A program made the position numbers and the translations under genes. Shown piece after piece: positions 1 to 18,826 of a DNA stretch of 27,467 nucleotides (positions are counted from its first letter, which is position 1; every line of letters starts with the position of its first letter). Below the pieces are notes generated by a model that was not told where the DNA came from, did no database searches, and saw only the letters and a program-made list of their open reading frames with translations. Source of the DNA: an uncultured Chitinophagales bacterium (lineage in GTDB: Bacteria > Bacteroidota > Ignavibacteria > UBA10030 > UBA6906); contig CAYHRX010000001.1 in assembly GCA_964359075.1 (NCBI GenBank), positions 1 through 27,467 of the forward strand, written 5' to 3'.

Positions 1-96
1 TGCGTTCATGACGTTACTCCTTTTTGAAAATGTTGATTGATGAGTGTTGGTTGATGAATTCGTCCTATATCCAGCTACTGCATCTTGCGTTTTCAT
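1..96 (-). CDS. 5' fragment of a gene running off the left edge; two in-frame candidate starts (ATG at 96 and ATG at 9)
   Basis: Minus strand reads AAAAGGAG-caaatgtc-ATG AAA ACG CAA... (MKTQDAVAGYRTNSSTNTHQSTFSKRSNV), then in frame AAAAGGAG-taacgtc-ATG AAC GCA at 9. Both starts have strong SD sequences. Product unknown because the gene is truncated by the window. Confidence 0.4.
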   Translation of the reverse strand, partial: MKTQDAVAGYRTNSSTNTHQSTFSKRSNVMNA

Positions 97-157
97 GACA
101 TTTGCTCCTTTTGGAAACAGTGAATAGTGAACAGTAATTTGTGAATCGTTACCGTTT

Positions 158-182
158 GGTTGCTCTTGCTCAAGAAGCAACC
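158..182 (-). other. Intergenic stem-loop with no U-tract on the minus strand (possible mRNA stability or processing element)
   Basis: Minus strand ggttgc-t-tctt-gagc-aaga-gcaacc; followed by aaacggt rather than poly-T. Confidence 0.3.
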
Positions 183-221
183 TAGTTGACCGTCACCTGC
201 ATGGTGCCGGCCACCAAACTG

Positions 222-298: not shown

Positions 299-3200
299 TT
301 AGTTGACTGTTATTGTGCCATCGTTTGTGAATATACCGTCGTTGATCAAGTCACCAGTGACTTGCAGAGTACTGGTTACAAGGACATTTGCCCCCGCGTT
401 GACCAGGATGCCTGCATTGACGATGGTGGGAGCACCTATCGTCTTTAATCCGGCATTCGTAAAGGTCAGGCTGTAGTAGGTAATACCTGCGACGCTCTGG
501 GCGCCTGTTCCGTTGAACTCTATCGTCGATAAATTCGTCGTGGCGTCCGCACTGGCTGATCCTGTCACAGCAAGGCTCCCCGCAAGGTAGGTCGTGCCGC
601 TCGGGAAGAACTTCGTTCCCGCATTGCTGAAGGTCAGGTTGTAGTAGGTTGTCGCCGCAGCGGTCTGGTTGCCACCGCCATTGAAGTCGACTGTCGAGCT
701 GTTCGTCGTCGCATCAACCGTGACAGCCGAAACCACCAGGGTTCCGGAGACGCCAGTTGTCCCGGAGGAGAGAGTCTTCGTACCCGAGCCGCTGAGCGTC
801 AAGTTCGTATAGTTCATCGCCTTCACTGTCTGGGAACCGCTATACTGATAGTTGACCGTGTTGCCCGACGCTGAAGCAACCAGGTTGCTCAATCCGATCG
901 AGCCCGTGAAGCCGATGTTCAAGGTCGCTGAGGCTGCCAGGGTAAGCGTCCCGGATCCACCGAGGCCGGCGTTCACCGTGTTCGTTCCATTGTTGGTATA
1001 GCTACCGTTGACATTGAGCGTCGCGAAGATCGTCGTAGCTGATCCACCGATGGCCTTGGCGGTTCCTGTTAGCGTGACCGTGCTCGTGCCGGTATTGAGA
1101 GAACCGCCCGTTGAGTTGTTCGTCCAGTCGCCCGAAATGGTGAAGCCTCCTGCGCCAAGAGACTTCGTGCCGCTCCCCGAGAAGAGGATGCTCCCATAGC
1201 TTGGGGAGTCCGAAACCGTTTGCGAGGCGCTTGAGCTGTTGCTGTACTGGACGGTGCTTGCGGGATCAAGCGAAGTGGTCGTGAAGCCCGTCGGGAACGA
1301 GCTTGCTGCTACGCCAGCGCCGCCGACATTAAGCGTTGAGTTTGCACCAACCGTCAAAATCGAACCCAACGTCCCAGTGATCTGGAACGCGGTTGATCCG
1401 CTGGATGTATTCAGTATTCCACCGGAGGTGATCGTGAGATTGCCCGTCAGGTTCGATGCAGTAAGGCTCTTCTGCAGCGTCACGACAGAGCTGTTCGTGA
1501 TCCTGAGGTGATGAAAATTGACGGTGGAGGAGCTGGAAATGCTCTGACCTGATGTCCCATTGTACTCAATGGTTGAATTGGTCCGCGGTACAAGTGTGCC
1601 TGGATTGATAATCGGATCACCGGTTCCAGAGAGGTAAATTGTGTTAGCGCTTGAAAACGCCAGTGTCAACGTCTTACTATTAAAGTCGATATTCTTGACG
1701 TTGAACGTCCCGCTCCCGGCCCACTGGGAATTCTTGTTGAGTCGAACGGTGACGTTGTTTGCAGTGAACGTACCGCTATTGTCAAAGTCCGTTCCGCCAT
1801 CTGCGCCGAACGAAAGCGTGAACGATCCGCCTCCATTGAGTATGCCGCCGGTCTGGATCGTCATGGAACGCAAGTTCGCCGTGCTCACATCGATCGTGAC
1901 AGTCGTCCCAGTGGCAATAACCACATCCGCATTCAATCCGGGAACTTGACCGCCTCCCCACGTCGAGATAGAGTTCCAGTTTCCGCCAGCGCCGGTGCTC
2001 GTGTAGGTTCCGCCAAACTGCTGTCCGAGCTGGAAATCACCAAAGATTGTGACACCCGTCGCCTGAGTCGTTGTCGCAGTCCTCGTTCCCACCGTCGGAT
2101 ACGACCAAGATCCTGTAAACGCGCCGACGACAAACTGCAGCGGATCTGATCCAAGATCGACATCACCTGAGACAAACGTAAAGGTGACATCGTACGTCGT
2201 GAAGACTATACCCGTGTTCGAAAGCGTCCAGTATCGGTTGGCGGTGCTGTTGGGATCGATGTTAGAGGTTGCGATGTTCGAATGATCGCCCGAGGTCGTT
2301 TTCGCAGTTAGCGTTCCGGCCGTGGTCACACTCGCAAAGGTCACAGAAACGGGCGTATAGCTCGACACATCGCCGATTTCAAACGATTGCGCGACCGGCG
2401 CTCCTGTCGCCACATACTTCGAGAGATTACCCACGACATGGCCGCTTGTGCGCGAGACGCTTCCGGTCGAGCTGATAGCCAGAGTATTCGACCCTGTGGT
2501 GATCTTACCGCTGGTCAATGTGAGTGTACCATCGATCGTGACATTCGATGAGAGCGTCGCCCCCTGAGAATCATTCAGCTGCAGGTTGGTCAATGATCCA
2601 CCACCGGAGAGGGTGTGGGCAGATAGGCCTCCGCTAAGCAGGATCGAGCCAGACCCTGTTTGACTGCCCGCGTTGGAAACGTTCCCATTGACCGTCACCG
2701 TACCGGCTGGTGTGAACGTGGACCCAGATCCTATCGTCAAGGTTGTAGCGACCGTGATGGCCCCCGATGCCGTGACCGTCGCCGAATTGGCAATCGTCAA
2801 GGCGTTAAATGTCATGGTCCCTGAGTTGGCGATCGAAGAACCGTTTTCCATCGTAACGGTCCCTGAGGATGGGCTCATGGTTGCGCCAATATTGACGGTC
2901 AGCGTGCCCTTCACCGAGAAACTCGCCGACGGCTGAACCGTTGGCGTCGTTGCGACCGTCAACCCGTTGAAGCTCAGCAGCGTCCCGCTATTGGTGATCC
3001 CCCACCCCGTGCCCGTCATGGTTATCGTTCCACCCGATGGATTGAACGTGACACCACTGTTGACCGTCAATGCCCCCTTCACGGAGAAACTCGCCGACGG
3101 CTGAACCGTTGGCGTCGTTGCGACCGTCAACCCATTGAAGCTCAGCAGAGTCCCGCTATTGGTGATACCCCATCCCGTGCCCGTCATCGTAATCGTTCCA

Positions 3201-6200
3201 CCCGTTGGATTGAATGTCGAGCCGGTTCCATTGGTCAGAGTGCCGCCGACGCCAAAGCTGCTCGACGTCGTTACGGTGGCCGAGTTAGCAATGGTGAGAT
3301 TGCTGAAGGCAAGCGTCCCACCGGAGTTCACGATCGATGAACCATTGTTCATCGTGATGGTTCCGCTTGTCGGTGTGAATGTCCCCGTCACAGTGAATGC
3401 GCCACCCACAGCTGCCGTGTTGCCGGCGCCGGTGATCGAGCCACTCACCTTCAGGCCGCCATATGTGAGGTTCGAGAGGACTTGTCCGGCGGTCGAGTAT
3501 TCCACCGTCAGATTTGTCAGCGTCTTGTTCGTGATCGTCCACTGAGAATTGAAATCTGCCGTTGCTGCCGTGCGCGTAACCTGCACCGTGCCGTTGCCAG
3601 TGAGCGTGCCAGCTCCGCTGATAATTGCCAACGCGGCCGGAGTGAAGACCACGTTTACGGCGACCGTCAGATTGCCCGACGCGCTCATGTTGAGGTTGGC
3701 ATTGAAGCCGCTCGTGTTATTGATGTTGACAACGTTGAATCCGATCGTTGAAGCTGTTGTTCCGCCCAGTGACCTTGCGGCGGGACTCGTCGGCGTATTG
3801 AAGTTGAGCGTGCTGGACGTCGTGTACGTAAACGGTGTCGGACTAGTCGAGTTTATAACCCAATGGCCTTTGACGATGTGCGTTCGTGACGTTCCAGCAT
3901 GAAAGACTGCAGTACCAAGCACCTGTAAGCTGTCGTTCACGGTTACGTTTCCAGCCGCAGTCTTGGTACCACTTCCGCTCAGCGTGAGTTTGTTGTAGGT
4001 CTGAGCAGAAATAGTCTGGGCGCCTGAGACAGAATACTCAACTGCTCCGCCCCCGAGACTCACTGACCCGCTGACCGTCGGGAACGCAGCTTGCGTGTTG
4101 AGCTTGCCGTTGAGAATCGTGAACGTGCCGGAAGCTGTCAGCGAATTCCCAACGGTAATCCTCAACTCCAGATTTGCACTATTCAACGTGATGGAGTTAC
4201 AGACCGCCGCGGAATTGATAGTGATCGTACTGTCGACCGTAAGGCTGACATTGTCCGTGGCTATTGGAACAGTGCCAGGATTCCAGTTGATCGCCGTTTC
4301 CCAGTTCAAATCGCCAGCCAAGCCGACCCAAGTCTTTGTCGTTCCGGCTTGTTCACCGAGCTGGAAATCACCGAATGCCGTCAAACCTGTCGCCTGCGTG
4401 CTCGTAGCCGTCTTCGTACCTACGGTCGGATACGTCCATCCGGCGCTGTAGCGTCCGACAATGAAGTTGTTGGGATTTGCACCGAGATCAAGATCGCCCG
4501 CGACGAAGGTGAACGTAACGCTGTAGTTTGTGAAGACGATACCGCTATTGGTCAATGTCCACGTGCGGTTCGCAGTCTTGGTCGGATCGATCGTCGCGCT
4601 GCCGATCTGGAGATGGTCACCCGAGGATGTGGTGACGGTCAAATAGTTCGCCGTACTGACGCTGGCGAAAGCAACCGTCACTGGAGTGTACGCAGTCGCA
4701 TCACCGACTTCGAATGTCCGCGTCGGCCCGATCGTTGGCACGTATTTTTCGAAATTCCCAATCACGTGTCCGCTCGTTCTGGAAACGGAGGCCGTCGTCG
4801 TGATGGTGATCTTGTTTGCACCGGTGGCGATGGTACCAGTGTTCAATGCCAGCACACCGTTTACCGGCACATTGCCCGCGAGAGAGACGCCGCTTGCGTT
4901 GTTGATCGTGAGGTTGTGGTAGGTCAGCGCACGGACAACCTGAGCACTTGATCCATTATACTCGATGGTCGGCGTGTTGGTCGTGGCATCGGCTGTCGCT
5001 CCTGAGATCGTAAACGCGCCGGCGATTCTCGACGTGCCGGATGAGAACCTCTTCGTCCCGCCGCTGCTGAATGTAAGATTGTAGTAATTGATCGCCGCGA
5101 CAGCCTGAGTTCCGACAGCTGCGTTGAAGTCAACCGTCGTGGCATTTGCCGTTCCATTGACTGTACCGCCTGTGACAGTAAAGTTGCCGGCAATAGTGGT
5201 TGTGCCTGAGGCAAGAGTCTTCGCACCGCTATTACTCGTCGCCAGGTGGTAATAATTGATCGCTGCCACAGACTGACTCGAGGTGCCGTTGAATTCGATC
5301 GTCGTGCTATTTGCCGTGGCGTTGGCCGTCCCTCCGCTTACAGTGAAGTTACCCGCAATGCCGGTCGTCCCAGAGGCGAACGTCTTCGTCCCACCATTAC
5401 TGAAGGTGAGATTGTAGTAGTTGATGGCCGCAACCGACTGAGTGCCGGCGCCGTTAAAATCGATCGTCGTGCTGTTTGATGTGGCGTTGATTGTTCCGGC
5501 AGTGACTGTGAAGTTACCAGCGACACCGGTTGTTCCGACCGCGAAAGTCTTCGTCCCTCCATTGCTGCTCACGACCAGGTTGTAGTAGTTGATGGCGGCG
5601 ATAGCTTGGTTCCCGGTCCCGTTAAAGTCGATTGTGGTCGTGTTCGTCGTCGCATCAGTTGTCCCGCCGGTAACAGCAAAATTGCCCGCGATTCTAGTTG
5701 TTCCAGAACCAAATGTCCTTGTCCCGCCATTGCTGAAAGTTAGGTGATGATAATCGATCACAGCCACTGACTGGCTGCCGGTCCCGTTGTAGTTGATCGT
5801 CGTACTATTCGCGGTCGCGTTAGCCGTTCCACCGGTTATGGTGAAGTTCCCCGCGATGCCCGCTGTGCCGGAGGCAAAGGTCTTCGTCCCACCATTGCTG
5901 AAGGTGAGATTGTAGTAGTCGATTGCCGGGACCGATTGGCCGCCGCTGCCGTTGAAATCAATCGTCGTGCTGTTAGACGTGGCATTGGCTGTGCCTCCGG
6001 TGACGGTGAAGTTGTTTGCGATGCCGATTGCGCCAGAAGCAAAGGTCTTCGTCCCGCCATTGCTGAAGATGAGGTTATGATAGTTGATCGACGCAACCGC
6101 CTGCGTGCCGCTTCCGTTGAAGTCGATGGTTGTGCTGTTTGACGTCGCATCGACAGAGCCTCCGCTGACGGTGAAATTCCCAGCGATGCCAGTTGTTCCA

Positions 6201-9200
6201 GCGGCGAAGGTCTTAGTCGCCCCATTGCTGAGGGTGAGACTGAAGTAATTCCGCACAGCCACTGTCTGCGAGCCGCTCGCAGCCATGTAGCCAACAGTGC
6301 CGCCGGTGATGTTGACGGTTCCCGTGACAGCGGGGAATGACGTTTGCGTGTTCAGCGTGCCATTGGTGAGGGTGAGATTCCCGGAAACCGTTAATGAATT
6401 GCCAGTGAGTATCGTGAGCGTTAGGCCAGAGTTGTTCAGCGTGAGCGAATTACAGACAGCCGCGACGTTGATGTTGATGGTGTTTGCACCATTGAGATTG
6501 ACATTCTCTGAGGAATTCGGGACGCCGTCAGGGCTCCAGTTCAGCGCGTCACCCCAATTGTTCGTTCCAGCTCCGCCATCCCATGTCTTCACTACTGCCG
6601 TAGCGGGCTCCCCGACTTGGAAATCGCCAAACCCGGTCAATCCAGTCGCCTGCGTGCTCGTCGCCGTCCTGGTCCCAACGGTCGGTAAGGCCCACGATGA
6701 CCCGTTGTATCTATCGACAATGAAGTTGCTCGTGTTGGCACCGCCATCGATATCACCGGAAACGAAGTTGAGTATCACGTCATAAGTTGTAAACGAGATG
6801 CCGCTGTTCACCAGCGTCCAGTAGCGGTTCACGCTCTTCGTTCCGTCAATGCCTGATGTAACGATCTGGAAGTGATCGCCGGCTGTCGTGCTGGCCGTGA
6901 GATATCCGGCGACGCTCACGCTGCCAAAGGAAATGCTTACCGGCGTGTAATTGCTGGCATCTCCAATTTCAAACGTCGGCGTAAGCGCAGACCCCGAGAC
7001 GTACTTCGCGAGGTTGCCGACAACGTGACCACTGGTTCGCGAGACGCTCCCTGCCAAACCGATGGTGAGCGTGTTGGAACCTGTTGTGATATTCCCGCTC
7101 GTCAACGTCAGCGTTCCGTTCACTGTTATGCTGCTGGGGATGGAGACACCGCTTGCGTTGTTGATCGTGAGGTTTCTGTAGGTGAATGCCCGAGCCGTTT
7201 GCAGGGCAATTCCATTGTACTCGATCGTCGTTGCATTCGTCGTTGCATCAGCGCTCGCCGCGCCATTGAAGGTAAAGGCCCCGGAGATTCTCGTGGTGCC
7301 CGTGGCAAAGGTCTTCGTCCCAGCATTGCTGAACGCAAGATTGTAATAGTCGAGCGCCGGGATTCCCTGATTGCCGCTGCGTTTGAAGTCAACGGTGGAG
7401 CTGTTCGAGGTCGCATCTACTGTGACACCGGAAACAGTCAGATCCCCTGCGATGCCCGTGGTGCCAGACGGGAACGTCTTCGTCCCTGAACCAGACAGGG
7501 TGAGATGCCCGTAGCTCTGTGAGCTGTTCAGCGCGCCGACGAGCTGGCTCGAGCCGTAGTACTCGATGGTGCTTGTGGAACCAATGGAGTGTGCGTTGTA
7601 GTTCGAGGGACGCGTGTTCGTCGATCCGATCCTCAACGTGGCGCCGTCGGCGAGCGTCAATGTCCCACCCGCTGACGCGCGGTTAGGCGTGAAGCTTCCA
7701 AGGTCGAACGTCCCACCTGAAATGGTCAGGTCACCCGTCGGGGTGATATTCCCCGCAAGAGTCTTTGTTCCACCACCGCTGATTGTCAGGCTTGCATACG
7801 GTTGCGCAGCAACAGTCTGGCTTCCGCTCGACGCCGTGTACCCAACGGTACCGCCGCTGAGCGTTACTGTGCCGCCCACCGTCGGGAATGAAGTCTCGGT
7901 GTTCAGCGTGCCGCTTGCAATCGTAAGGTTTCCTGCTGCGGTCAGGGAGTTCCCTGAAAGAATCGTGACGGTCAGACCGCTGTTGTTCAGCGTGATCGAA
8001 TTCGCCGAAGCAGGGACGTTAATGTTGATTGTGTTCGCGCCCGTCAGGCTGACATCTTCAAGAGACGTCGGGATACCGTCCGGATTCCAGTTCGCGGCAT
8101 CGCCCCAGTTGTTCGTGGCGGCCCCCTCATCCCAGGTCTTCACGAGCTGCTCGCCAACCTGGAACTGACCGAATTGCGTCAAACTGGTTGCCGTCGTGCT
8201 GGTGTCGGTTCTCGCTCCCACGCTAGTGGCAAACCAATTCGATCCGTCATACCGGCGGACGATGAAATTGGCCGGCGTCGCACCCGCATCCATGTCACCG
8301 AGCGTTCCGCCGAACCCTAGTCTGACATTGTAGGAGGTAAACGTGACACCGTTGGGCTTGAAAATGTGATGGCGATTCTCGCTCTTGTTCGGATCAATGC
8401 CGGAGGTGGCAATTTGCGGATGATCCCCGAACACCATCCGGAGAGTGACGTAACCCGCGACCGTCACGTTATTGAACTGGATCTCCGCCGGCGTGAGGAG
8501 GTCGTTTCCACCGACGGGATAGTAGATCGTGGGAGATCCTGTCGGAACATACTGCCGCAGCGCCCCTCGGATGCGCCCGTTCACCCTTACGACCGTGCCC
8601 GTTGAGTTGACGAAAAGCGTGTCCGGCGTCGCAGGCATGTTGTCGAAGATACCATCTGCCAGCGTGAGAGTACCATTGATCGTCAATGCACCGCTATGGG
8701 TCACCTTGTTGGAACCCGGCTGAACGCTTACCGTCAAGTTGTTCAGCGTCGAAACACTCGATGGGATGAAGGTTCCGGCATACGAGCTATTGTAGACAAG
8801 ATTCGAGGTAGCCCCGGCAGAGAGGTTAGTCGACGTTCCGGCGATCGGACGTCCGTTGAGTGTCAGAGTGTTGGCACCGACGGTGAACGTTCCGCTTGTG
8901 AGCGTCAAGGTGCTGTCCACTGTGACATTGCCGCCCATCGAGACGCCGCTCGCATTGGTGAGCGTGAGGTACGCATGCCTGAACGCCGGCGCAGTCTGAG
9001 GAGCAGAGCCGTTGTAGACAAAGGTGTTGTTTGCTGTGATGTAACCACCGCTCGTGAAGGTGGCCGCGGGATTGAAGGCACCCGCTACGCGGACCGTCCC
9101 GCCGTTCGGGAACGAAACGTTGTTTGCGCCCCGCGCGCCACTGATCGCCAAGCTGCCGTAGTTGAGGGCATTGACCGATTGCGCGCCAGTCGAATTGTAA

Positions 9201-11743
9201 TCGACTGTGAGGTTGACCAGTGTCTTGTTTGTGATCGTGTACTGAGTCAGGAAGTCCAACCCCGTGACGCGCGCCGTGCCGCTCCCGGTTAGCGTCCCCA
9301 CACCGCTCACGACGACTGCAGGATCAGGCGCCAACACGGCATTCGCATTGACAGTCAGGTTTCCTGCAACACTGAAGTTGCCACTGGCAGTAACCACAGA
9401 ACTCGTGTTCGCAAGCGTAAGATTATTGTAGTTGAAGGCAGCGACCGATTGCGATCCCGTTCCGTTGTAGCTGACCGTGCTGCCGGTAGTTGTGTAAGCG
9501 TTCGTTCCAGGAGTGAACGTCCCGGCGACACCGATGGTACCAGTTGAGGCGAGGGTTCTTGCACCGGTCGAACTACTCGTGAGGTTGTTGTAGTTAAAAG
9601 CGGGGATTGTCTCCGCACCTGTGCCATTGAAATCGATTGTGCTCCCGGTGATCGTGTACGCATTTGTTCCCGGCGTCAATGTTCCAGCGACTCCGATACT
9701 GCCTGTTGAAGCAAGTGTCCTTGCGCCAGTCGAGCTGCTCGTAAGGCTGTTGTAGTTGAAGGCAGGGATGATCTGCGCGCCAGCGCCGTTGAAGTCAACA
9801 GTATTGCCCGTCGTGCCGTAGACAATATTCGTCGCATTCGGACTGAACGCCCCGGAGATGCCCACCGTGCCTGCTGCCAACGTCACCGTTGATCCCCCTC
9901 GATCGCCACTGATGGTGAAGTTAAAATAATTCAACGCATTGACCGTTTGTGCGGCAGTCGCGTCATAATCGACGGTCAAGCTCGCCAACGTCTTAGTGGC
10001 GATATTGTACTGCGTGTTGAAATCCGGGGTCGCAGCCGTGCGCGTCACCTTCACCGTACCACTGCCAGTCAGCGTTCCCGTACTCGTCAGGGTTACTCCT
10101 GCGGCGGGCGTCAGGATTGCCCCGGCTCCAACGGTCAGCGTCGGCGTCGTGCCCGTCGAGAAGCTGATGTTCTCATTGAGGTTGAAGCCGCTTGTATTGT
10201 TAATGTTGATATCGTTGAAGGTGATCGTCGCTATCGTCGTCCCGTCTATTGACGTTGCTGCGGGAGTCGAAGGTGTATTGAAGTTGATCGTACTTGCTGT
10301 CGTAAAGGCGAACGGAGTCGCAGCACTTGTGTTCACGATCCAGTTTCCGGAGAAGGTGTGCGTCAGCGACGTCCCACCACTGAACGATGCCGAACCACTC
10401 ATCATCAGGTCGCCGTTGACGGACAAGGCCCCGCCGGCGGTCTTAATCCCGGCGTTGGAAAGCGTTAGGTTACTATATGTTGTCGCCTTGATGGTTTGCG
10501 CGCCGCCACCGTTATAGTTCACCGTGTTCGGGTTTGTCGAGGCATTGAGAGTTGTAATACCGGAGGTACCCCCGATCAAGAGAGTCGAGCCAGAGCCTTG
10601 AAGAAGTGTTCCCGTTCCACTCAATGCAGTGGCCACGGTGAGGGAGGCGTTGTTGGTCAATGTCGTGCCTGTTACGGTGACTGTCGGGATACTGAAGTCA
10701 TTGTTCACCGCGTAGGTCGTTGTGAAAGTTGCCGCTGTCAAAGACTTGGAGCTCGATGTCCCGCTCAAGGTTCCGCCGCCGCCCGACTTCTGGAACGTCC
10801 ACGTCCCCGATGTTCCTGTGATCGATCCTGTCCCGTCAATCTGCAGGTTGCCGTTCATGGTGATCGCCTCGGCGGCAGTGAAGCTCATCGTTCCGTTGTC
10901 GATCAGGAGGTTTCCGAAGGTTTTGACGCCCGTCGTGCTGGTGATGTTCATCGTTCCGGACACGGTTGTCGTGCCCGTTACGGACAGGGTGAAAGCTCCT
11001 ACAGTGAGGGTTCCCTGGGTAATCGTCAGATCTTCGTTGATAGTGGCATTGCCGCCAAGAGAGAGCGCGCCGCCCGTCTTGTTGATCTGGAGATTGGCAA
11101 ACGTGGCGGCAATCAGGGAGTTCGTCAAAGCGCCATTGATGAGCACGGTGGATCCGGCAAAGGAGGTCAGCGTTCCTCCTGTCGGCAGGGCAGCGGTCGT
11201 GAGTGTACCGGCCCCCTGGAAGAGGATCACCTTCCGAGCCGCAGCAGTCGCATCGAACGCGATGCCCCCCGTGATTGTGGCGCTTCCTGTTCCAATGACC
11301 AACCTCGAATCGCGGGAATTGTTGTTACTCGCTCCGTTGAGCGTCAACGTGCCATCCACCGTCAACGTACCGGATCCTACATCGACGTCGGCATTGTTAT
11401 TATTCGACGTCGGATTGTTGATGATCACACTACCGGTCACGTTGAGGCTGTTGCCATTCAATAGCAGTCCTCCTGTAGACGCCGCGCCGACGATAGTCAG
11501 GCTCGCGGACGTGGCAGACGCGAAATCCAACGTGACCGTGTGGTCACTGCGTATTTGCACGTTGTCGGTCGCCGAAGGCGCGGTTGCTGCCGCAGCGCCA
11601 CCAAAGCCGACAGTGGACCAAGTGGTGTTGCTGCTCCAGTTTCCTGTCTGGCGACTATAGTACGTCGTCTGAGCCTGCAGACTTTGCGCAACAGTCAGCA
11701 CAAGAAGCGCCAGCGAAGACACTATGTTTCGTAATCGAAACAT
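299..11743 (-). CDS. Giant (3814 aa) secreted Thr/Gly/Asn/Ser-rich, beta-strand-repeat surface protein, likely adhesin
   Basis: Uninterrupted 11.4-kb ORF with an SPI-type signal peptide (MFRLRNIVSSLALLVLTVAQSLQA/Q). Five modules each start with a Trp-rich motif (e.g. TWDGGAGTNNWGDALNWSPDGVP). Four copies of a ~140-aa domain (GHVVGNL.KYV...NRYWTL...GDFQVGE), a motif style I associate with large Bacteroidota surface proteins. Many 54-56-aa internal repeats. No T9SS CTD, autotransporter barrel or other anchor at the C-terminus (...NDGTITVN*). Confidence 0.9.
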   Translation of the reverse strand: MFRLRNIVSSLALLVLTVAQSLQAQTTYYSRQTGNWSSNTTWSTVGFGGAAAATAPSATDNVQIRSDHTVTLDFASATSASLTIVGAASTGGLLLNGNSLNVTGSVIINNPTSNNNNADVDVGSGTLTVDGTLTLNGASNNNSRDSRLVIGTGSATITGGIAFDATAAARKVILFQGAGTLTTAALPTGGTLTSFAGSTVLINGALTNSLIAATFANLQINKTGGALSLGGNATINEDLTITQGTLTVGAFTLSVTGTTTVSGTMNITSTTGVKTFGNLLIDNGTMSFTAAEAITMNGNLQIDGTGSITGTSGTWTFQKSGGGGTLSGTSSSKSLTAATFTTTYAVNNDFSIPTVTVTGTTLTNNASLTVATALSGTGTLLQGSGSTLLIGGTSGITTLNASTNPNTVNYNGGGAQTIKATTYSNLTLSNAGIKTAGGALSVNGDLMMSGSASFSGGTSLTHTFSGNWIVNTSAATPFAFTTASTINFNTPSTPAATSIDGTTIATITFNDININNTSGFNLNENISFSTGTTPTLTVGAGAILTPAAGVTLTSTGTLTGSGTVKVTRTAATPDFNTQYNIATKTLASLTVDYDATAAQTVNALNYFNFTISGDRGGSTVTLAAGTVGISGAFSPNATNIVYGTTGNTVDFNGAGAQIIPAFNYNSLTSSSTGARTLASTGSIGVAGTLTPGTNAYTITGSTIDFNGTGAETIPAFNYNNLTSSSTGARTLASTGTIGVAGTFTPGTNAYTTTGSTVSYNGTGSQSVAAFNYNNLTLANTSSVVTASGNFSVAGNLTVNANAVLAPDPAVVVSGVGTLTGSGTARVTGLDFLTQYTITNKTLVNLTVDYNSTGAQSVNALNYGSLAISGARGANNVSFPNGGTVRVAGAFNPAATFTSGGYITANNTFVYNGSAPQTAPAFRHAYLTLTNASGVSMGGNVTVDSTLTLTSGTFTVGANTLTLNGRPIAGTSTNLSAGATSNLVYNSSYAGTFIPSSVSTLNNLTVSVQPGSNKVTHSGALTINGTLTLADGIFDNMPATPDTLFVNSTGTVVRVNGRIRGALRQYVPTGSPTIYYPVGGNDLLTPAEIQFNNVTVAGYVTLRMVFGDHPQIATSGIDPNKSENRHHIFKPNGVTFTSYNVRLGFGGTLGDMDAGATPANFIVRRYDGSNWFATSVGARTDTSTTATSLTQFGQFQVGEQLVKTWDEGAATNNWGDAANWNPDGIPTSLEDVSLTGANTININVPASANSITLNNSGLTVTILSGNSLTAAGNLTIASGTLNTETSFPTVGGTVTLSGGTVGYTASSGSQTVAAQPYASLTISGGGTKTLAGNITPTGDLTISGGTFDLGSFTPNRASAGGTLTLADGATLRIGSTNTRPSNYNAHSIGSTSTIEYYGSSQLVGALNSSQSYGHLTLSGSGTKTFPSGTTGIAGDLTVSGVTVDATSNSSTVDFKRSGNQGIPALDYYNLAFSNAGTKTFATGTTRISGAFTFNGAASADATTNATTIEYNGIALQTARAFTYRNLTINNASGVSIPSSITVNGTLTLTSGNITTGSNTLTIGLAGSVSRTSGHVVGNLAKYVSGSALTPTFEIGDASNYTPVSISFGSVSVAGYLTASTTAGDHFQIVTSGIDGTKSVNRYWTLVNSGISFTTYDVILNFVSGDIDGGANTSNFIVDRYNGSSWALPTVGTRTATSTQATGLTGFGDFQVGEPATAVVKTWDGGAGTNNWGDALNWSPDGVPNSSENVNLNGANTININVAAVCNSLTLNNSGLTLTILTGNSLTVSGNLTLTNGTLNTQTSFPAVTGTVNITGGTVGYMAASGSQTVAVRNYFSLTLSNGATKTFAAGTTGIAGNFTVSGGSVDATSNSTTIDFNGSGTQAVASINYHNLIFSNGGTKTFASGAIGIANNFTVTGGTANATSNSTTIDFNGSGGQSVPAIDYYNLTFSNGGTKTFASGTAGIAGNFTITGGTANATANSTTINYNGTGSQSVAVIDYHHLTFSNGGTRTFGSGTTRIAGNFAVTGGTTDATTNTTTIDFNGTGNQAIAAINYYNLVVSSNGGTKTFAVGTTGVAGNFTVTAGTINATSNSTTIDFNGAGTQSVAAINYYNLTFSNGGTKTFASGTTGIAGNFTVSGGTANATANSTTIEFNGTSSQSVAAINYYHLATSNSGAKTLASGTTTIAGNFTVTGGTVNGTANATTVDFNAAVGTQAVAAINYYNLTFSSGGTKRFSSGTSRIAGAFTISGATADATTNTPTIEYNGSSAQVVRALTYHNLTINNASGVSLAGNVPVNGVLALNTGTIATGANKITITTTASVSRTSGHVIGNFEKYVPTIGPTRTFEVGDATAYTPVTVAFASVSTANYLTVTTSSGDHLQIGSATIDPTKTANRTWTLTNSGIVFTNYSVTFTFVAGDLDLGANPNNFIVGRYSAGWTYPTVGTKTATSTQATGLTAFGDFQLGEQAGTTKTWVGLAGDLNWETAINWNPGTVPIATDNVSLTVDSTITINSAAVCNSITLNSANLELRITVGNSLTASGTFTILNGKLNTQAAFPTVSGSVSLGGGAVEYSVSGAQTISAQTYNKLTLSGSGTKTAAGNVTVNDSLQVLGTAVFHAGTSRTHIVKGHWVINSTSPTPFTYTTSSTLNFNTPTSPAARSLGGTTASTIGFNVVNINNTSGFNANLNMSASGNLTVAVNVVFTPAALAIISGAGTLTGNGTVQVTRTAATADFNSQWTITNKTLTNLTVEYSTAGQVLSNLTYGGLKVSGSITGAGNTAAVGGAFTVTGTFTPTSGTITMNNGSSIVNSGGTLAFSNLTIANSATVTTSSSFGVGGTLTNGTGSTFNPTGGTITMTGTGWGITNSGTLLSFNGLTVATTPTVQPSASFSVKGALTVNSGVTFNPSGGTITMTGTGWGITNSGTLLSFNGLTVATTPTVQPSASFSVKGTLTVNIGATMSPSSGTVTMENGSSIANSGTMTFNALTIANSATVTASGAITVATTLTIGSGSTFTPAGTVTVNGNVSNAGSQTGSGSILLSGGLSAHTLSGGGSLTNLQLNDSQGATLSSNVTIDGTLTLTSGKITTGSNTLAISSTGSVSRTSGHVVGNLSKYVATGAPVAQSFEIGDVSSYTPVSVTFASVTTAGTLTAKTTSGDHSNIATSNIDPNSTANRYWTLSNTGIVFTTYDVTFTFVSGDVDLGSDPLQFVVGAFTGSWSYPTVGTRTATTTQATGVTIFGDFQLGQQFGGTYTSTGAGGNWNSISTWGGGQVPGLNADVVIATGTTVTIDVSTANLRSMTIQTGGILNGGGSFTLSFGADGGTDFDNSGTFTANNVTVRLNKNSQWAGSGTFNVKNIDFNSKTLTLAFSSANTIYLSGTGDPIINPGTLVPRTNSTIEYNGTSGQSISSSSTVNFHHLRITNSSVVTLQKSLTASNLTGNLTITSGGILNTSSGSTAFQITGTLGSILTVGANSTLNVGGAGVAASSFPTGFTTTSLDPASTVQYSNSSSASQTVSDSPSYGSILFSGSGTKSLGAGGFTISGDWTNNSTGGSLNTGTSTVTLTGTAKAIGGSATTIFATLNVNGSYTNNGTNTVNAGLGGSGTLTLAASATLNIGFTGSIGLSNLVASASGNTVNYQYSGSQTVKAMNYTNLTLSGSGTKTLSSGTTGVSGTLVVSAVTVDATTNSSTVDFNGGGNQTAAATTYYNLTFSNAGTKFFPSGTTYLAGSLAVTGSASADATTNLSTIEFNGTGAQSVAGITYYSLTFTNAGLKTIGAPTIVNAGILVNAGANVLVTSTLQVTGDLINDGIFTNDGTITVN
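2907..3214 (-). repeat. Tandem 168-nt (56-aa) coding repeat, two near-identical copies
   Basis: 2907-3046 vs 3075-3214 differ at 8 of 140 positions by manual comparison. Peptide GGTITMTGTGWGITNSGTLLSFNGLTVATTPTVQPSASFSVKG is identical in both, and more diverged units flank them. Confidence 0.9.
4930..6260 (-). repeat. Array of about eight ~165-nt (55-aa) coding repeats
   Basis: Consensus NAT.NSTTIDFNG.G.Q.VA.INYYNLTFSNGGTKTFASGT.GIAGNFT.TGGT; the DNA motif tcttcgtccc recurs at 5881 and 6046 (165-nt offset). Further copies lie near 520-830 and 7300-7500. Confidence 0.85.
9470..9800 (-). repeat. Tandem 162-nt (54-aa) coding repeat, two copies plus a partial
   Basis: DFNG.GA..IPAFNYN.LTSSSTGARTLASTG.IGVAGT.TPGTNAYT.TGST occurs twice; DNA offset 162 (tgtagtt at 9589 and 9751). 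Confidence 0.8.
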
Positions 11744-11799: not shown

Positions 11800-11815
11800 T
11801 TGAGAACATGTGCCA
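11800..11815 (-). promoter_or_regulatory. Possible sigma54-type promoter for the giant gene (good -24 box, poor -12 box)
   Basis: Minus strand TGGCAC-ATGTT-CTCAA, with the same CTGGCACA -24 block as the two major pilin promoters. A palindromic site lies about 65 nt upstream, as at those promoters. Confidence 0.35.
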
Positions 11816-11872
11816 GTTTCTTAGGGATGTACATTCGCTTGCTTTGACCCTCAAGATCGTCAAGTGTGCAAT

Positions 11873-11885
11873 CCTCACGCTGAGA
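11873..11885. promoter_or_regulatory. Putative enhancer (activator-binding) palindrome
   Basis: CCTCA-CGC-TGAGA, a near-perfect match to the locus motif TCTCA-N3-TGAGA. Confidence 0.45.
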
Positions 11886-11890: not shown

Positions 11891-12295
11891 TCACGCGACT
11901 CGAACTCCAGCCGCCACGTGCTCCCGTCCAGAAAATTCGTCATACAGGAACGCAAGGAGTTCGTGCTTCAACGAGTACTTGTCAATAAAACCATCGGCCG
12001 AGTGTTGCCAGGCCATGCTGCGATAGAGGCTGCTTCCGTTCATCGAGAGAATGACCACCTTCGTGCCCGGCAAACGAAGCTTGATCTCCCGTGTCGCACT
12101 GAAGCCGTCTCGCCCTGGCATATCCAGATCCATCAGCACAAGATCCGGATGAAGCTTTTCTGCCTGGTCGATCGCTTCGACACCGTCAGCAGCTTCACCG
12201 ACGATTTCAACGCCCGGCTGGGCCCGGAGAAACGAAAGAAGTGAGCGCCGAAAACTCTCGTGATCGTCAGCGACCAGAACTCTGATTGATTTCAT
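11891..12295 (-). CDS. Stand-alone response regulator receiver protein (NarL-type REC, no output domain)
   Basis: VLVADDH acidic pocket, PDLVLMDLDMPGRDG with phosphoacceptor Asp, GFIDK with conserved Lys; 134 aa; SD GGAGAG upstream. Confidence 0.92.
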   Translation of the reverse strand: MKSIRVLVADDHESFRRSLLSFLRAQPGVEIVGEAADGVEAIDQAEKLHPDLVLMDLDMPGRDGFSATREIKLRLPGTKVVILSMNGSSLYRSMAWQHSADGFIDKYSLKHELLAFLYDEFSGREHVAAGVRVA

Positions 12296-12339
12296 GATGT
12301 AACTCTCCTTAAGTGTTGAGGTAAGTGAATTGTCAAATC

Positions 12340-12759
12340 TCAGGAATTCCCAGACCGCGCTACACCGTTGGACGCGTACACGGCGGCCAGGAGAAGGGAT
12401 CCTTCACCGAACGTCGCTTCAAGACCCGGTTTCAAATCGGATTTCGCGATAAATCCATCCGCGCGTACCTCCTGAGCCCGCAAGCGGTAGGCTGCGTCGT
12501 CATTCATCGTCGCGATGACGACGACTTTGGAGGGCCAGCGTTGCTTGATGATGCGCGTCGCCTCCAACCCATTTCGATGGGGCATCGCGATGTCCATCAA
12601 CACAATATCGGGATTGAGCTGCTCCATCTTCTCGATGACATCAACCCCATCGATCGCTTCGCCCACCACGGAGACGTTGGGCATTCTGCTCAGGAATTCG
12701 CGAACGATTCTCCGGAAGTCGTTGTGATCATCCGCGATAAGGATCTTGACAGGCTCCAT
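12340..12759 (-). CDS. Stand-alone response regulator receiver protein (NarL-type REC, no output domain)
   Basis: ILIADDH, PDIVLMDIAMPHRNG, GFIAK; 139 aa; SD GAGGAG upstream; paralogue of the adjacent receiver. Confidence 0.92.
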   Translation of the reverse strand: MEPVKILIADDHNDFRRIVREFLSRMPNVSVVGEAIDGVDVIEKMEQLNPDIVLMDIAMPHRNGLEATRIIKQRWPSKVVVIATMNDDAAYRLRAQEVRADGFIAKSDLKPGLEATFGEGSLLLAAVYASNGVARSGNS

Positions 12760-13124: not shown

Positions 13125-13502
13125 TTAGTCCGAGACTGTCACGACAACTGCGCTCGAGACATGCTGTCGTTCAGCGTAACGTTTGCCAGTGTCTGCGCCG
13201 GCGGCGGAAGTTGAAGCGTCAAGTTCGAAGCTGAGATTCCGTTGGCGAGGTAAGTCTGCTGCGAGGGTAAGCTTTGGTTGCGATCGATACGCGCGGGTTT
13301 GTGCTGTGGACGCCGATCGTTCGCTCATCTGATCCACATTCTGTGATGCAGACGATTGGGAAGCCAGAGAGATCGGTCCATTCGTTCTGTGGACACTGAA
13401 CGTGACTGTCTGAGCTGCAGAACTTGATCGTTGCGCAAACGCCTGGCCTGCACACATCCCACACACAGCAACGAGAGCTACGATATGTCCGAGTGGTTTC
13501 AC
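13125..13502 (-). CDS. Small secreted protein, degenerate relative of the pilin-like family
   Basis: Signal peptide ending GQAFA/Q; N-terminal AAQTVTFSV like ANQTVTLAV of the major subunit; C-terminal VVVTVSD like TVTLTLTN; Ser/Ala/Gln-rich middle. GTG start without a clear SD. Confidence 0.6.
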   Translation of the reverse strand: MKPLGHIVALVAVCGMCAGQAFAQRSSSAAQTVTFSVHRTNGPISLASQSSASQNVDQMSERSASTAQTRAYRSQPKLTLAADLPRQRNLSFELDASTSAAGADTGKRYAERQHVSSAVVVTVSD

Positions 13503-13517
13503 AGGAGATGTCTACTT

Positions 13518-14009
13518 TTATTCCGTTAGCGTCAGCGTAATCACCCGAGACTGTGCATCAATCTCATTGACACTCTCGTTTGCCGCGAAGGTGTAGGTGA
13601 TGCTCTGATTCAAGACGCTCCCGCGGTTAATCCCTGTCACGACATTGATCGGTGTGCGAGCGCGCGAGATATCAACAGGACCGTTGCTGACACCTTGCGA
13701 ACTCTCGAGCTTGATCACAAGCTGGGTCCCTTCGGGCATCACATCGCTGATCGAAGCAACGATCTTCATGTTGTCGAGATTCGTGAGCATGCTGTAGCGC
13801 GTGTTATTGTCACTCACGGACAAGACGTTCGGGTCACCCAATAGACCGTTGATGGTCAGTTCGCCAGGATTACCGTTGACTGCAATTTTCGTGATCGGTT
13901 TGACTTCAACAGTCACGATCTGAACGACACTGGCGCCGCTCTGTGCCACCAGTTGAAGGGGAACGAGTAGGAGTAAAAGAAGGATGAGTTTGTGAACTGC
14001 CTTAGCCAT
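13518..14009 (-). CDS. Secreted pilin-like subunit, clear paralogue of the duplicated major subunit (ORF can extend to 14051)
   Basis: Signal peptide MAKAVHKLILLLLLLVPLQLVA/Q; shares AV.GNPG.LT, SVSDN.T.YS, G.VDIS, VVTG.NRG, ITYTF.AN.S and TLTLT motifs with 20035..20535. Confidence 0.85.
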   Translation of the reverse strand: MAKAVHKLILLLLLLVPLQLVAQSGASVVQIVTVEVKPITKIAVNGNPGELTINGLLGDPNVLSVSDNNTRYSMLTNLDNMKIVASISDVMPEGTQLVIKLESSQGVSNGPVDISRARTPINVVTGINRGSVLNQSITYTFAANESVNEIDAQSRVITLTLTE

Positions 14010-14095
14010 TGTCTTGAAGAAGTAAGCAAAACAAACGATGAATGTCAACATGTTTCACGATTTTCGACGCAGAATGTTCGACCTCCAGACATAGC

Positions 14096-14111
14096 ATCAA
14101 GAGGAATGCCA
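14096..14111 (-). promoter_or_regulatory. Putative sigma54-type promoter (-24/-12)
   Basis: Minus strand TGGCAT-TCCTC-TTGAT; GG and -12 box at sigma54 spacing; intergenic and upstream of the 13518..14009 gene. Confidence 0.6.
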
Positions 14112-14139
14112 AAACGCTGACGTTTTCAATTTTGTGTGT

Positions 14140-14152
14140 TCTCGTTTTGAGT
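14140..14152. promoter_or_regulatory. Putative enhancer palindrome (single site)
   Basis: TCTCG-TTT-TGAGT, about 36 nt upstream of the -24 box, closer than at the other promoters. Confidence 0.35.
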
Positions 14153-14391
14153 CAGCGCATGCAAGGCTGTTGAGGTCAACGCTTTCACTGTCCATTTCGG
14201 ATGACATCAGATCGATTTGAAATTTCTACAAGGAGTGGGCTTAGCTCGAGTCCATGAGTTGACATCCGAGAAGGATAAATCTCGTAAAGCGCGTGAAGCA
14301 CCGACAGATTCTTCACGAGCAGAGTAAGGAAGGATTCCAATGAGATCTCAGGGAGGCGGGAGGCAGAGATCTACACGAGAGCTCCTTGAGA

Positions 14392-17300: not shown

Positions 17301-17484
17301 TCACAATCTTGCCAGGCGGCGTCTCGACACGCGGTTCGCTTGCCGGACGCACCTCGATGTTCTGTGCCTGAACACCATGAACAGCCACCGGCGCCAGCAC
17401 GGCAAGCATCAGAATAAAAAAAAATATCCGGTTGTGATGGACCGGATGTATCATCGCACGCAAATTCACTGTCGTCGAGGTCAA
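14392..17484 (-). CDS. Usher-like outer-membrane assembly protein: two N-terminal Ig/NEW3-like domains, central beta-barrel-like region, two carboxypeptidase-regulatory-like domains, Pro/Lys linker, C-terminal SPOR-like domain
   Basis: Signal peptide ending HGVQA/Q. PGKIVTVSMRVSN...LPTGW and AGDPYTALFLITNKGN are Ig-like segments, followed by a long run of amphipathic beta-strands. GRLRGSVVD...TDRNGEFFFPSLKPDKY and ATISGTV...SDNRGRFSFTGMRPGRW are CarboxypepD_reg-like repeats. The tail GFSILVSSW...RYSVYVGNFSSKKLAEIAAQEI is SPOR-like. TTG start overlaps the chaperone TGA stop (TTGA); alternative ATG starts at 17454 and 17409. Confidence 0.75.
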   Translation of the reverse strand: MTSTTVNLRAMIHPVHHNRIFFFILMLAVLAPVAVHGVQAQNIEVRPASEPRVETPPGKIVTVSMRVSNNSMASVRLEPSVVLPTGWRAFKKETAYELSAGASDIRLISFSIPAETPAARYEIHYSVKDAAAPTTTAQASVTVVVTSVQQLELRLLELPRYVLAGDPYTALFLITNKGNAVGRIRLTPRSSNNFSVQLDSSRVQLRPNETRQLKAVVQTEPRLLQKVQDVFEILAMRDQDSLFAGRASGSVEVVPKVTGVEDQFFEFPLQVRLRAAGGRTAKGAQVEIMGSGALGEGRRDRLDVLLRTPDIQQRSILGQRDEYLISYQTEGYEVYAGDKNYNLSPLTEFNRYAFGAGGKAALGLVTIGGFYNETRFLVPLQKEAAGFLSYRLGQSSELGLNYLRKIDQTKSDIVTVRSLLRPLKNSEVDLEYGRGYRGGLADKAYSARVTGREQWIAYEARYVWAGPKYAGYYKDLEFKTLNLSVMPWSNIRLEAYFRDEERNLERDTTLFFAPRERYFQFGAGYSDLLAIYYRLNHQDDLLPIPKYRRDEELVQVRMGHNFSSLGFIANADFGRTQDTVVGKKYPFQRYTLFTNFRPTSFSSIGLSVEYSKDQNIFTDEIQKRLSGSLSAWLMLGARTQFTLSAYGSRTPDSIKQTYYLIDVALEHTFPFGHRLALRGRQSEFTPSFGSKDVAYLLEYSIPIGVSLSRITTTGRLRGSVVDAEAGKGLPNVLIYASGATAVTDRNGEFFFPSLKPDKYYIQIDMGSIGLNRVPSQPMPREITIKGGEEARVDLGVIRGATISGTVLLYGLIDSVQIDTTRIAYAELGGHSNVILELANSLESHRRISDNRGRFSFTGMRPGRWSLQVVEGNLPANHYFEKEGVELEVAPGGTQHIELKILPRRRRIQILQEGKLLEETKPVERKKPAQPPVVAKPPRPTTKLAPIKTLDTTHIVVRLPKETGFSILVSSWVTEEKAVREAANLQRAFGYHAFVRKTVLRQLGTRYSVYVGNFSSKKLAEIAAQEIRKKR
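17416..17424 (-). repeat. T9 homopolymer in the 5' end of the usher-like gene
   Basis: Plus strand A9 (agaat-aaaaaaaaa-tatcc); coding strand ATA TTT TTT TTT ATT (IFFFI). Confidence 0.8.
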
Positions 17485-18299: not shown

Positions 18300-18306
18300 G
18301 GGGAGC

Positions 18307-18807: not shown

Positions 18808-18826
18808 GGCGGATTTCGGACCGCTA

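Follow-up and report, generated by a model that had tools for sequence, protein, structure and literature searches.

Giant adhesins of T9SS-bearing bacteria are thought to reach the cell surface via a C-terminal sorting domain (CTD). The window analysed here, a stretch of 27,467 nucleotides that makes up the entire contig CAYHRX010000001.1 of an uncultured Chitinophagales bacterium, encodes an adhesin-like protein of 3814 residues (P0001, hereafter the giant) in which such a domain is missing. The main clue is held by the genes downstream of the giant, which were outside the view of the sequence-only reading that drew attention to the protein.

The giant protein and its C-terminus

The giant is composed of a G8-like N-cap followed by five beta-solenoid segments, between which four beta-sandwich inserts, possibly ZU5/GAIN_B-like, are placed (Table 1). 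The Sec signal peptide assigned to it earlier agrees with a by-eye reading of the N-terminus, MFRLRNIVSSLALLVLTVAQSLQA followed by Q, which has a positive n-region, a hydrophobic core and an A-x-A-like site ahead of the Gln; P0013 shares this N-terminus. The protein terminates in GDLINDGIFTNDGTITVN, followed by a TAA stop codon. AlphaFold2 models residues 3240-3814 with pLDDT 94 and pTM 0.86 as a solenoid that runs to the last residue, with beta strand through residue 574 of 575, in line with the abrupt end in a beta-strand that had been noticed before. This C-terminal module also terminates the Ig-repeat proteins P0011, P0018 and P0070.

Table 1. Positions of the features in the window (1 is its first nucleotide)
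Feature	Position	Strand	Remark
Start (MNA...) of next gene	1..9	(-)	cut by contig end; matches start of 524-aa paralogue P0055 in L001
Inverted repeat, terminator-like hairpin after giant gene	158..182	(-)	without T run
Giant beta-helix protein gene (P0001)	299..11743	(-)	ATG start, 3814 aa, stop codon counted in
C-terminal module, aa 3240-3814	302..2026	(-)	G8-like N-cap, then beta-solenoid up to final residue
End rung, aa 3793-3814, LQVT-GDLIND-GIFTND-GTITVN	302..367	(-)	hexad repeats, last coil; tail HMM 33 bits
Beta-sandwich insert 4, aa 3085-3243	2015..2491	(-)
Beta-sandwich insert 3, aa 2309-2466	4346..4819	(-)
Beta-sandwich insert 2, aa 1556-1714	6602..7078	(-)	copy used for structure model
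Beta-sandwich insert 1, aa 1040-1200	8144..8626	(-)	possible ZU5/GAIN_B-like fold
Sec/SPase I-type signal peptide, aa 1-24	11672..11743	(-)	by-eye reading; predicted cleavage between LQA and Q; kept in P0013
Sigma-54-like -24 box (CTGGCAC...), upstream of giant	11800..11816	(-)	-12 element poor
Two single-domain response-regulator genes, directly upstream of giant	11891..12759	(-)	syntenic with giant in all related loci

Pfam and NCBIfam searches bore out that the giant has no T9SS sorting domain, autotransporter barrel, PEP-CTERM, SLH or LPXTG motif. NCBIfam, with TIGR04183, TIGR04131 and the autotransporter models, gave no match at all, the type-A (TIGR04183/PF18962) and type-B (TIGR04131/CHU_C, PF13585) T9SS signals and an HMM trained on the CTDs of the same genome gave none either, and the sole Pfam match at E<=1 is a G8 fragment at residues 3261-3302. 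The host genome itself encodes a T9SS, with a SprA_N match (9e-57) and no fewer than 150 CTD matches; PorP_SprF was not matched among the scanned neighbours in the window and the related loci. A search of the 298 nt after the stop codon in three frames revealed no CTD, either frameshifted or in a downstream ORF, and no sequence lies beyond because the window is the entire contig. A C-terminal 12-strand translocator barrel is likewise missing, with no Pfam autotransporter match and the last 575 residues modelled as solenoid; the N-terminal TPS domain (PF05860) has no match, a G8-like cap being found in its place, and the AlphaFold2 model shows no pilin-type or Ig-like domain at the C-terminus. 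T1SS RTX adhesins have no Sec signal peptide, whereas the giant bears a Sec-type one; RTX repeats gave no Pfam match in it, and no ABC/MFP/TolC genes were found in the scanned loci. In contrast to the giant, its relative P0015 starts with a TPS-domain-like sequence, as read by eye. Sequence searches of the PDB with the C-terminal module and the insert gave weak matches to titin Fn3 and nothing of use, and a search of the ESM Atlas with the last 255 residues returned unnamed clusters only.

The 159-residue insert was modelled confidently (pLDDT 96.8), and its nearest structures in Foldseek are the FIIND, GAIN_B and ZU5 sandwiches, with a probability of 0.97 but E values of 0.015-0.07 and TM-scores of 0.41-0.50. 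The hosts of MAIN domains are large, signal-peptide-bearing, adhesin-like proteins (Brogan & Rudner, 2026, bioRxiv 10.64898/2026.05.12.724683), as is the giant, which, unlike them, carries four copies along its length instead of one beside an anchor and lacks the HX(S/T) motif. Among 53 insert copies there is no conserved H-hydrophobic-S/T/C column, and in 41 of them Pro comes directly after the invariant His; an autoproteolytic reading of the inserts is rejected, since the catalytic motif is missing. Tethering by cohesin and dockerin is also rejected, as the Pfam search found no cohesin and the fold of the insert is not cohesin-like.

A conserved end rung and its copies in the operon

The last coil of the solenoid (strands 553-574 of the model) is an 18-residue rung of three hexads, with the consensus G-D-[LF]-x-N-D / G-x-[LF]-T-N-N / G-T-I-x-V-x-COOH. 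Proteins were counted as members of the end-rung family if they carry these three hexads at the very C-terminus, with no more than 3 residues left before the stop. Of 199 relatives, 44 end in the rung and 31 have a T9SS CTD, and no protein has both; nor is there a tail-like rung within 150 residues upstream of any CTD. The missing sorting domain is a family trait of the end-rung proteins and not a peculiarity of the giant. An HMM of the rung (tail HMM) scores 33 bits at the end of the giant and at most 4 bits elsewhere in it, and internal matches are rare throughout these proteins (9 at >=10 bits across 95,882 residues), while the rung loosely resembles the general internal rung of the superfamily, GDWxNxGTFTA... 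Among 31,537 ORFs of the genome, the tail HMM gave three terminal matches, which are the giant and two paralogues on another contig, C147. Without exception, the named family members come from Bacteroidota or Ignavibacteriota. A DNA pattern of the tail was also run over 301 genomes, but several of its matches are internal, so its counts are not taken as a census and the fetched and translated loci were relied on instead.

In the related loci the giant is part of a conserved operon, which begins with a PAS/GAF kinase and a LuxR regulator and continues with two to three single-domain response regulators, the giant, one to four short paralogues and a Big_1 protein (L001-L005, L026/L010, L011, L013, L014, L022, and C147 of the same genome). 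The compared loci are orthologues, so that their concordance counts for the most part as a single evolutionary observation. The short paralogues are 480-800 residues long and end in the same rung as the giant. The last gene of the operon encodes a Big_1/Invasin_D3 protein, often with a dockerin (Dockerin_1), that has a type-A T9SS CTD; a terminal CTD was found in all six complete partner proteins (E 1e-22 to 1e-28) and in none of the short paralogues. In the window, the stop codon of the giant is followed by a hairpin and then by the ribosome-binding site and ATG of the next gene, and the downstream genes of this genome lie on C147 (L027), which across the assembly gap is the likely continuation of the contig. 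An apparent conservation of 'KRSNVM' upstream of the paralogues turned out to be the Shine-Dalgarno sequence read in frame.

A similar rung is found at the opposite end of the downstream proteins, where each mature short paralogue and the Big_1 protein begin with it. Directly after the signal-peptidase site this head rung reads Q-[DN]-[LF]-[VI]-N-[TS]-G-x-[FI]-[TN]-N-[NT]-G-[TV]-[IL]-[KR]-V-[KR]. Its scores against the tail HMM are uneven: 11 of 29 mature N-termini reach >=10 bits, against 0.08 expected, and 15 of the 29 stay below 8 bits. The head and tail profiles align in hhalign with a probability of 92.9 and P = 3.8e-7 over 16 columns. A head HMM, trained partly on C147 sequences, retrieved from the genome only two C147 proteins and a tail, and no other T9SS cargo encoded by the genome has the head rung. 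Tails and heads occur in equal numbers in each locus that is complete. An operon with one or more head-bearing paralogues and a head-bearing protein with a T9SS CTD, the second mark of the end-rung family, is present in the relatives, and in this genome it would span the probable join to C147. A Rosetta-stone search for adjacent tail and head rungs within fused proteins found none, and BLAST of the N-terminal region of P0011 against the Big_1 partners gave no match. Ig-repeat fusions such as P0011 carry the rung at their end and no CTD, so that a CTD-bearing partner is not obviously needed by every member of the family.

Possible routes to the cell surface

The operon and the distribution of the rungs suggest that the giant is probably retained at the cell surface in trans, via the T9SS-anchored protein of its operon. 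Tentatively, and as a plausible rather than a settled picture, the giant may be the distal and largest component of a surface fibre that is built from several proteins, stands on a T9SS-anchored base, mainly in Ignavibacteriales, and has its parts joined by putative rung docking. Each C-terminal rung would stack on the N-terminal rung of the neighbouring protein as though both formed one solenoid, in the order cell surface, CTD-anchored Big_1 base, one or more adaptors, giant and N-capped tip, with the C-terminus of each subunit facing the cell. A giant docked on such a CTD-anchored chain would not need an anchor of its own. As to the crossing of the outer membrane, our guess would be a T9SS-linked route, with the giant as a passenger of its CTD-bearing partner, and not the usher-like pore; we know of no established precedent for a protein without a CTD that hitch-hikes on the T9SS.

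The presence of one motif at both ends could instead reflect a cap common to one type of solenoid module. The end rung would then be a structural end-cap and its N-terminal copy the start of a module, without docking, and the giant would be released or loosely attached, the operon merely grouping paralogous adhesins with an unrelated T9SS adhesin. This is somewhat unlikely, though it agrees with the loose match of the end rung to the internal rung of the superfamily, with its appearance in the AlphaFold2 model as the final coil of a regular solenoid and with the heterogeneous scores of the heads. Beta-helices normally have structurally distinct caps at their N- and C-terminal ends, but in this case one motif occupies both free ends; moreover, the four internal solenoid segments of the giant end otherwise, running into inserts, the head is lacking in every other T9SS cargo of this genome, and tails and heads are equal in number locus by locus. 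Among the options that the sequence-only reading had left for display, an unrecognised C-terminal signal gains support from the conservation of the rung in 44 relatives, never alongside a T9SS CTD, and from its matching N-terminal copies on the downstream proteins. Recognition of the giant itself as a T9SS cargo, through a cryptic non-canonical signal in its rung or in the final ~100 residues, is improbable: the T9SS of the genome, the CTD-bearing cargoes among its distant homologues and the T9SS-bearing phyla of all named family members would fit, but Pfam, NCBIfam and the clade-specific HMM detect no CTD, the model has no terminal beta-sandwich, and N-terminal copies of the motif are hard to square with a C-terminal secretion signal.

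The window most readily suggests that the giant is displayed by the neighbouring pilus genes, one of the options of the sequence-only reading, which also remarked on the common orientation and the apparently shared regulatory motifs. The orientation is indeed shared with the pilin-like genes. The common regulatory motif is borne out only in part, as the CTGGCAC -24-like box resembles those of the pilin genes and the palindrome at 11873-11885 contains one mismatch. The giant would in this case be exported and displayed by the chaperone/usher-like system, either as a tip adhesin or with its C-terminal strand bound by the chaperone-like protein, and the order pilins, chaperone-like, usher-like, pilins, two response regulators and giant recurs in five loci (the window, L001, L002 in part, L004 and L008), with pilin C-termini (...TLTLTN) that loosely resemble that of the giant (...GTITVN). 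As a general mechanism, the usher route is largely refuted, and for the giant it is even less probable than a cryptic T9SS signal. The orthologous HK-LuxR-RR-RR-giant operon of genome G103 has no pilus genes adjoining, and homologues of the chaperone-like and usher-like proteins were not detected in this genome (99% complete, 6 contigs); there and in four other carriers of the end rung (G129, G177, G169 and G009), the chaperone-like protein had no match and the usher-like query matched generic domains only. Genome G001 has its giant and pilus clusters on separate contigs, the latter with a kinase and a sigma-54 activator to itself, and no pilin-type domain is present at the end of the giant. 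A search of genomes with the usher-like protein led to Ignavibacteriaceae/Ignavibacteria MAGs and to one additional syntenic locus. The usher-like pilus genes form a facultative module of their own, which corrects the first impression given by the window. Secretion by a T5SS, of the two-partner or the autotransporter type and with a partner encoded elsewhere, is very improbable. The closest folds, although weak matches, are solenoids of T5SS passengers and TpsA proteins (Ag43, Hap, HMW1, EtpA), but the giant has neither a TPS domain nor a C-terminal barrel and no conserved locus contains an Omp85-type gene, which leaves the earlier suggestion of a TpsB partner outside the window unsupported; ShlB (PF03865) had no match in the host genome (G000), where the search is of limited weight as the control genomes likewise gave none. 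Finally, with a fragmented MAG (801 contigs), a repetitive gene and only 298 nt of contig left after its stop, an artefact of assembly or truncation could be suspected behind the missing CTD. This is almost certainly not the case: over 40 independent homologues also end at this rung, and the stop is followed by a hairpin and the start signals of the next gene. A 43-residue duplication inside the giant differs at 8 of 129 nt between its copies and is therefore a real duplication, not a collapsed repeat.

Relation to known surface fibres

With the type V beta-helical passenger and TpsA adhesins (Ag43, Hap, HMW1, FHA, EtpA), the giant shares a long, Sec-dependent, right-handed beta-solenoid rod and an adhesin-like design, and such adhesins are the top Foldseek neighbours of its solenoid, at a non-significant level and with TM-scores of at most 0.3. 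Unlike them, it lacks a translocator barrel and a TPS domain, its locus encodes no TpsB partner, and its rod is broken up by beta-sandwich inserts. Giant T9SS adhesins of Bacteroidota, of the SprB/RemA type, and the CTD-bearing homologues share with it the phylum-level setting and the combination of solenoid and G8-like modules, and 31 relatives end in a type-A CTD; the subfamily of the giant, in contrast, has no CTD, ends in the rung and is encoded adjacent to a separate CTD-bearing protein.

In curli, CsgA polymerises on the surface-bound CsgB, a sequence-related nucleator, uncapped beta-solenoid ends stack on each other, and the major subunit needs no anchor. The proposed chain would work like this by analogy only, the comparison not resting on curlin repeats or CsgG/E/F genes, and unlike curli it would be a defined hetero-oligomer with subunits of up to 3814 residues, not an open-ended polymer. 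The anchoring of cellulosomes in trans is similar in that a separate surface-anchored protein from the same locus would hold a large scaffold that has no anchor itself, and the partner often carries Dockerin_1; the giant, however, has no cohesin by Pfam or by fold, and the proposed contact is the stacking of rungs, not cohesin-dockerin binding.

The Ignavibacteriales family thus has no CTD, yet it is encoded together with a CTD-bearing protein whose N-terminus copies the C-terminal end of the family. Should the ends dock, this would account for how an anchorless rod of 3814 residues stays on the cell and for a modular construction of long surface fibres from separate genes, and the carriage of passengers without a CTD by the T9SS would become testable. 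The broader claim, that the rung is a new non-covalent 'split-solenoid' connector by which separate beta-helix proteins are chained and that docking lets CTD-less giants ride the T9SS, is doubtful at present; if true, it would represent a new principle for anchoring, and perhaps for exporting, the surface fibres of the FCB group.

The giant protein and its missing sorting domain

The giant solenoid protein (P0001, 3814 aa) lies on one of the 801 contigs (C1, which the window covers entirely) of a 4.05 Mb metagenome-assembled genome (MAG; 93.6% complete), which is most closely related to Ignavibacteriaceae and Ignavibacteria MAGs. Its N-terminus, MFRLRNIVSSLALLVLTVAQSLQA|Q, is a predicted Sec/SPase I-like signal, and Gln at +1 recurs in all neighbouring secreted proteins, as in the Bacteroidetes 'Q-rule' (PMC5837995). 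The protein ends in ...GDLINDGIFTNDGTITVN, followed by TAA. That it has no known sorting domain, as the sequence-only reading held, is borne out: Pfam detects a G8 fragment only, an NCBIfam search gives no match, and no T9SS C-terminal sorting domain (CTD) occurs in any frame of the 298 nt between its stop and the contig end, a stretch that contains a hairpin as well as the next gene's RBS and ATG. The absence is therefore genuine, and conspicuous in a genome that encodes SprA and has 150 or more matches to type-A CTDs. In the non-coding stretch after the gene, one frame reads ...GTMQVTVN-stop (compare the real end, GTITVN-stop), which may be what is left of an earlier end of the gene.

The giant consists of five solenoid segments with four inserts of about 159 aa between them, after each of which a cap (KTWDGGAGTNNWGD...NW..P.GVP) restarts the helix. 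An AF2 model of aa 3240-3814, built from a 21-row alignment, is all-beta (pLDDT 94, pTM 0.86), with four 4-residue strands in the last 24 residues, the hexads GDLIND / GIFTND / GTITVN. Foldseek against the PDB returned nothing under E = 0.1 for this model, and its top ranks (Ag43, IgA1 protease, HMW1, Hap, EtpA, PL6 lyases and tailspikes; TM ≤0.3) lend generic support only to a predicted adhesin-like right-handed solenoid. A 43-aa internal duplication is identical in protein sequence, while 8 of 129 nt differ, all synonymously; it is thus not an assembly collapse and suggests that the stretch was recently duplicated within the gene, or underwent gene conversion, with purifying selection acting on it.

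The inserts, modelled by AF2 from 53 copies (pLDDT 96.8), best match the FIIND of NLRP1 and CARD8, the GAIN domains of BAI2 and BAI3, and ankyrin ZU5 (Foldseek probability up to 0.97, but E 0.015-0.07 and TMq 0.41-0.50). Their near-invariant positions are GDH, S, NRYW and DxDxG. A 2026 preprint (10.64898/2026.05.12.724683) shows that GAIN-like domains of microbes (MAIN domains) cleave themselves at HX(S/T), releasing surface proteins. The inserts have no HX(S/T) column, their invariant His being followed by Pro, and therefore do not qualify as GAIN/MAIN members; they may be non-cleaving or differently cleaving bacterial relatives.

Coordinates of features in the window and in related loci (L numbers)
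Feature	Position	Strand	Residues
Giant ORF	299-11743	-	
Insert 1	8144-8626	-	1040-1200
Insert 2	6602-7078	-	1556-1714
Insert 3	4346-4819	-	2309-2466
Insert 4	2015-2491	-	3085-3243
43-aa duplication	2906-3034 and 3074-3202	-	
GTMQVTVN-stop stretch	182-208	-	
Repeated leader	7-25 and 94-112	-	
Palindrome copy	11873-11885		
Pilus cluster	13125-24047		
Region of SPOR domain in usher-like protein (Pfam)	14392-14760	-	962-1027
Big_1 partner with Dockerin_1, L003	22499-25783		
Big_1 partner with Dockerin_1, L001	25248-31235		
Big_1 partner with Dockerin_1, L002	22772-26908		

A terminal rung and its N-terminal counterpart

The C-terminal 575 aa of the giant retrieved 1132 cluster representatives at E ≤ 1e-3, from which 199 proteins were fetched for a census of C-termini. 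The same rung (the tail) ends 44 of these 199, at most 3-4 residues ahead of the stop, with the consensus [LV]-x-[VI]-x-G-D-[LFI]-x-N-[DA]-G-x-[LFVI]-T-N-[ND]-G-T-[IV]-x-[VI]-x. The rung finishes in N, P or Q in 35 of 43 cases and in an aromatic residue in only 2, so it is not a BAM beta-signal. A CTD takes the place of the tail in 31 of the 199 relatives; none carries both, and the 150 aa that precede the CTD in those 31 hold no tail-like rung. A third type of C-terminus in the superfamily (...RATFG[VI]Y[RK]G....[IV][YH].RE.[YF]; P0121, P0133, P0145, P0152, P0156, P0168, P0193) finishes in an aromatic residue, looks distinct from both CTD and tail, and may resemble MshQ-type ends. The giant's C-terminal module also ends the Ig-repeat proteins P0011, P0018 and P0070.

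Twenty-nine mature N-termini, from short paralogues of the giant and from the Big_1 partners encoded after them, carry a head motif, Q-[DN]-[LF]-[VI]-N-[TS]-G-[TS]-[FI]-[TN]-N-[NT]-G-[TV]-[IL]-[KR]-V-[KR], which is, judged by profile-profile comparison (probability 92.9, P = 3.8e-7, 16 columns), the tail rung again. When a 24-column tail HMM was run over 95,882 residues of tail-bearing proteins as a control for internal rungs, only 9 internal sites reached 10 bits, and the best score inside the giant was 4 bits. Among the heads, 11 of 29 reach 10 bits (0.08 expected) and 5 of 29 reach 12 bits (0.02 expected), so the match does not reflect a general rung consensus. The giant itself begins with a G8-like cap instead of a head, and at every complete locus tails and heads are equal in number. 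In this genome, the head HMM finds only one tail and the two proteins of another contig, C147, that were in its training set.

The operon, the nested pilus cluster and their regulation

In related loci, the giant is followed by 1-4 short paralogues of 480-800 aa with the same tail (P0055 in L001, three in genome G103, four in G177) and then by a Big_1 / Invasin_D3 / (Dockerin_1) protein. Complete copies of this Big_1 partner, orthologous between loci at 35-50% identity, end in a strong type-A CTD (E 1e-22 to 1e-28, clade HMM). The partner has Dockerin_1 in most loci; neither the giant nor its paralogues gave a cohesin match. In this genome, contig C147 encodes a tail protein truncated at its 5' end (735+ aa), another of 519 aa and the Big_1 orthologue, and the gene cut at window positions 9-1 begins MNA..., as does P0055; from this gene content, C147 very probably continues the window. 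Only three of the genome's 31,537 ORFs have a terminal tail match, the giant and the two C147 tail proteins.

A repeated leader, AAAGGAG-N7-ATG AAA ACG CA(A/G), is found twice in the window and upstream of the 519-aa gene (L027, on C147). It provides a short upstream start in frame, MKTQ..., that precedes the real start of the short paralogues by about 32-36 codons; a uORF, a leader and an extended signal peptide are possible readings. MKT(Q/E/H) starts also occur in L011, L014 and L023.

Display through the usher-like protein, which the sequence-only reading had proposed and tied to co-occurrence with the fimbrial genes, is not general. The order pilins, chaperone-like, usher-like, pilins, two single-domain response regulators (RRs) and giant is seen in the window, L001, L002 (partial), L004 and L008; in L003 (genome G001), L005 and L010 (G103), kinase, LuxR, RR, RR and giant follow each other without interposed pilus genes. 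The G001 pilus cluster (L006/L007) lies on a separate contig, C14, with its own kinase and sigma-54 activator. When 301 genomes of the class were searched for the usher-like gene, it turned up only in this genome and in 11 of the 17 genomes of one neighbouring family. G103, G129, G177, G169 and G009 encode tail-bearing proteins, yet the chaperone-like gene has no match in them and the usher query finds only SPOR or CarboxypepD_reg pieces. By the criterion of the sequence-only reading, the usher is therefore not the general export route, and the pilus cluster is a separate module that some loci have nested within them. It travels as a self-contained unit together with a divergent small kinase and a sigma-54 activator of its own; the window has it inserted between the gene for the LuxR regulator and those for RR, RR and giant. 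At its end, after CarboxypepD_reg-like domains, the 1030-aa usher-like protein has a SPOR domain, confirmed by Pfam.

The regulatory motifs thought to be common to the giant and pilin genes hold in part: the giant gene has a -24-like box (CTGGCAC) 57-73 nt ahead of its start codon, as do the pilin genes, and the palindrome copy has one mismatch. The -12 element of the giant's candidate promoter is poor. Constant partners of the giant are 2-3 single-domain RRs and a PAS/GAF kinase with the LuxR regulator.

Proposed anchoring in trans

The earlier interpretation is partly right: the unrecognised C-terminal element stands, as a conserved terminal rung with matching heads downstream, and neither the usher route nor export by a TpsB-like partner is supported. 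Cargoes of the T9SS with a type-A CTD are attached via their C-terminus. In a Big_1 partner attached in this way, the N-terminal rung would face outward, and a tail rung could stack on this head as if the solenoid simply went on for another coil. Each short paralogue would repeat the stacking as an adaptor, and the giant would close the chain, its N-cap forming the tip; the order of the genes, which runs from distal to proximal, agrees with this polarity. A serious rival holds that the end rung is a solenoid cap only. A head-tail chain on a T9SS-anchored Big_1 base would account for the giant's missing anchor, not for outer-membrane passage. The CTD-less subunits, at our preferred guess, would cross as passengers of a CTD-bearing partner, for which we know of no precedent to cite. 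The giant is best read as a distal subunit that lacks a CTD and belongs to a solenoid fibre built from several genes and anchored in trans.
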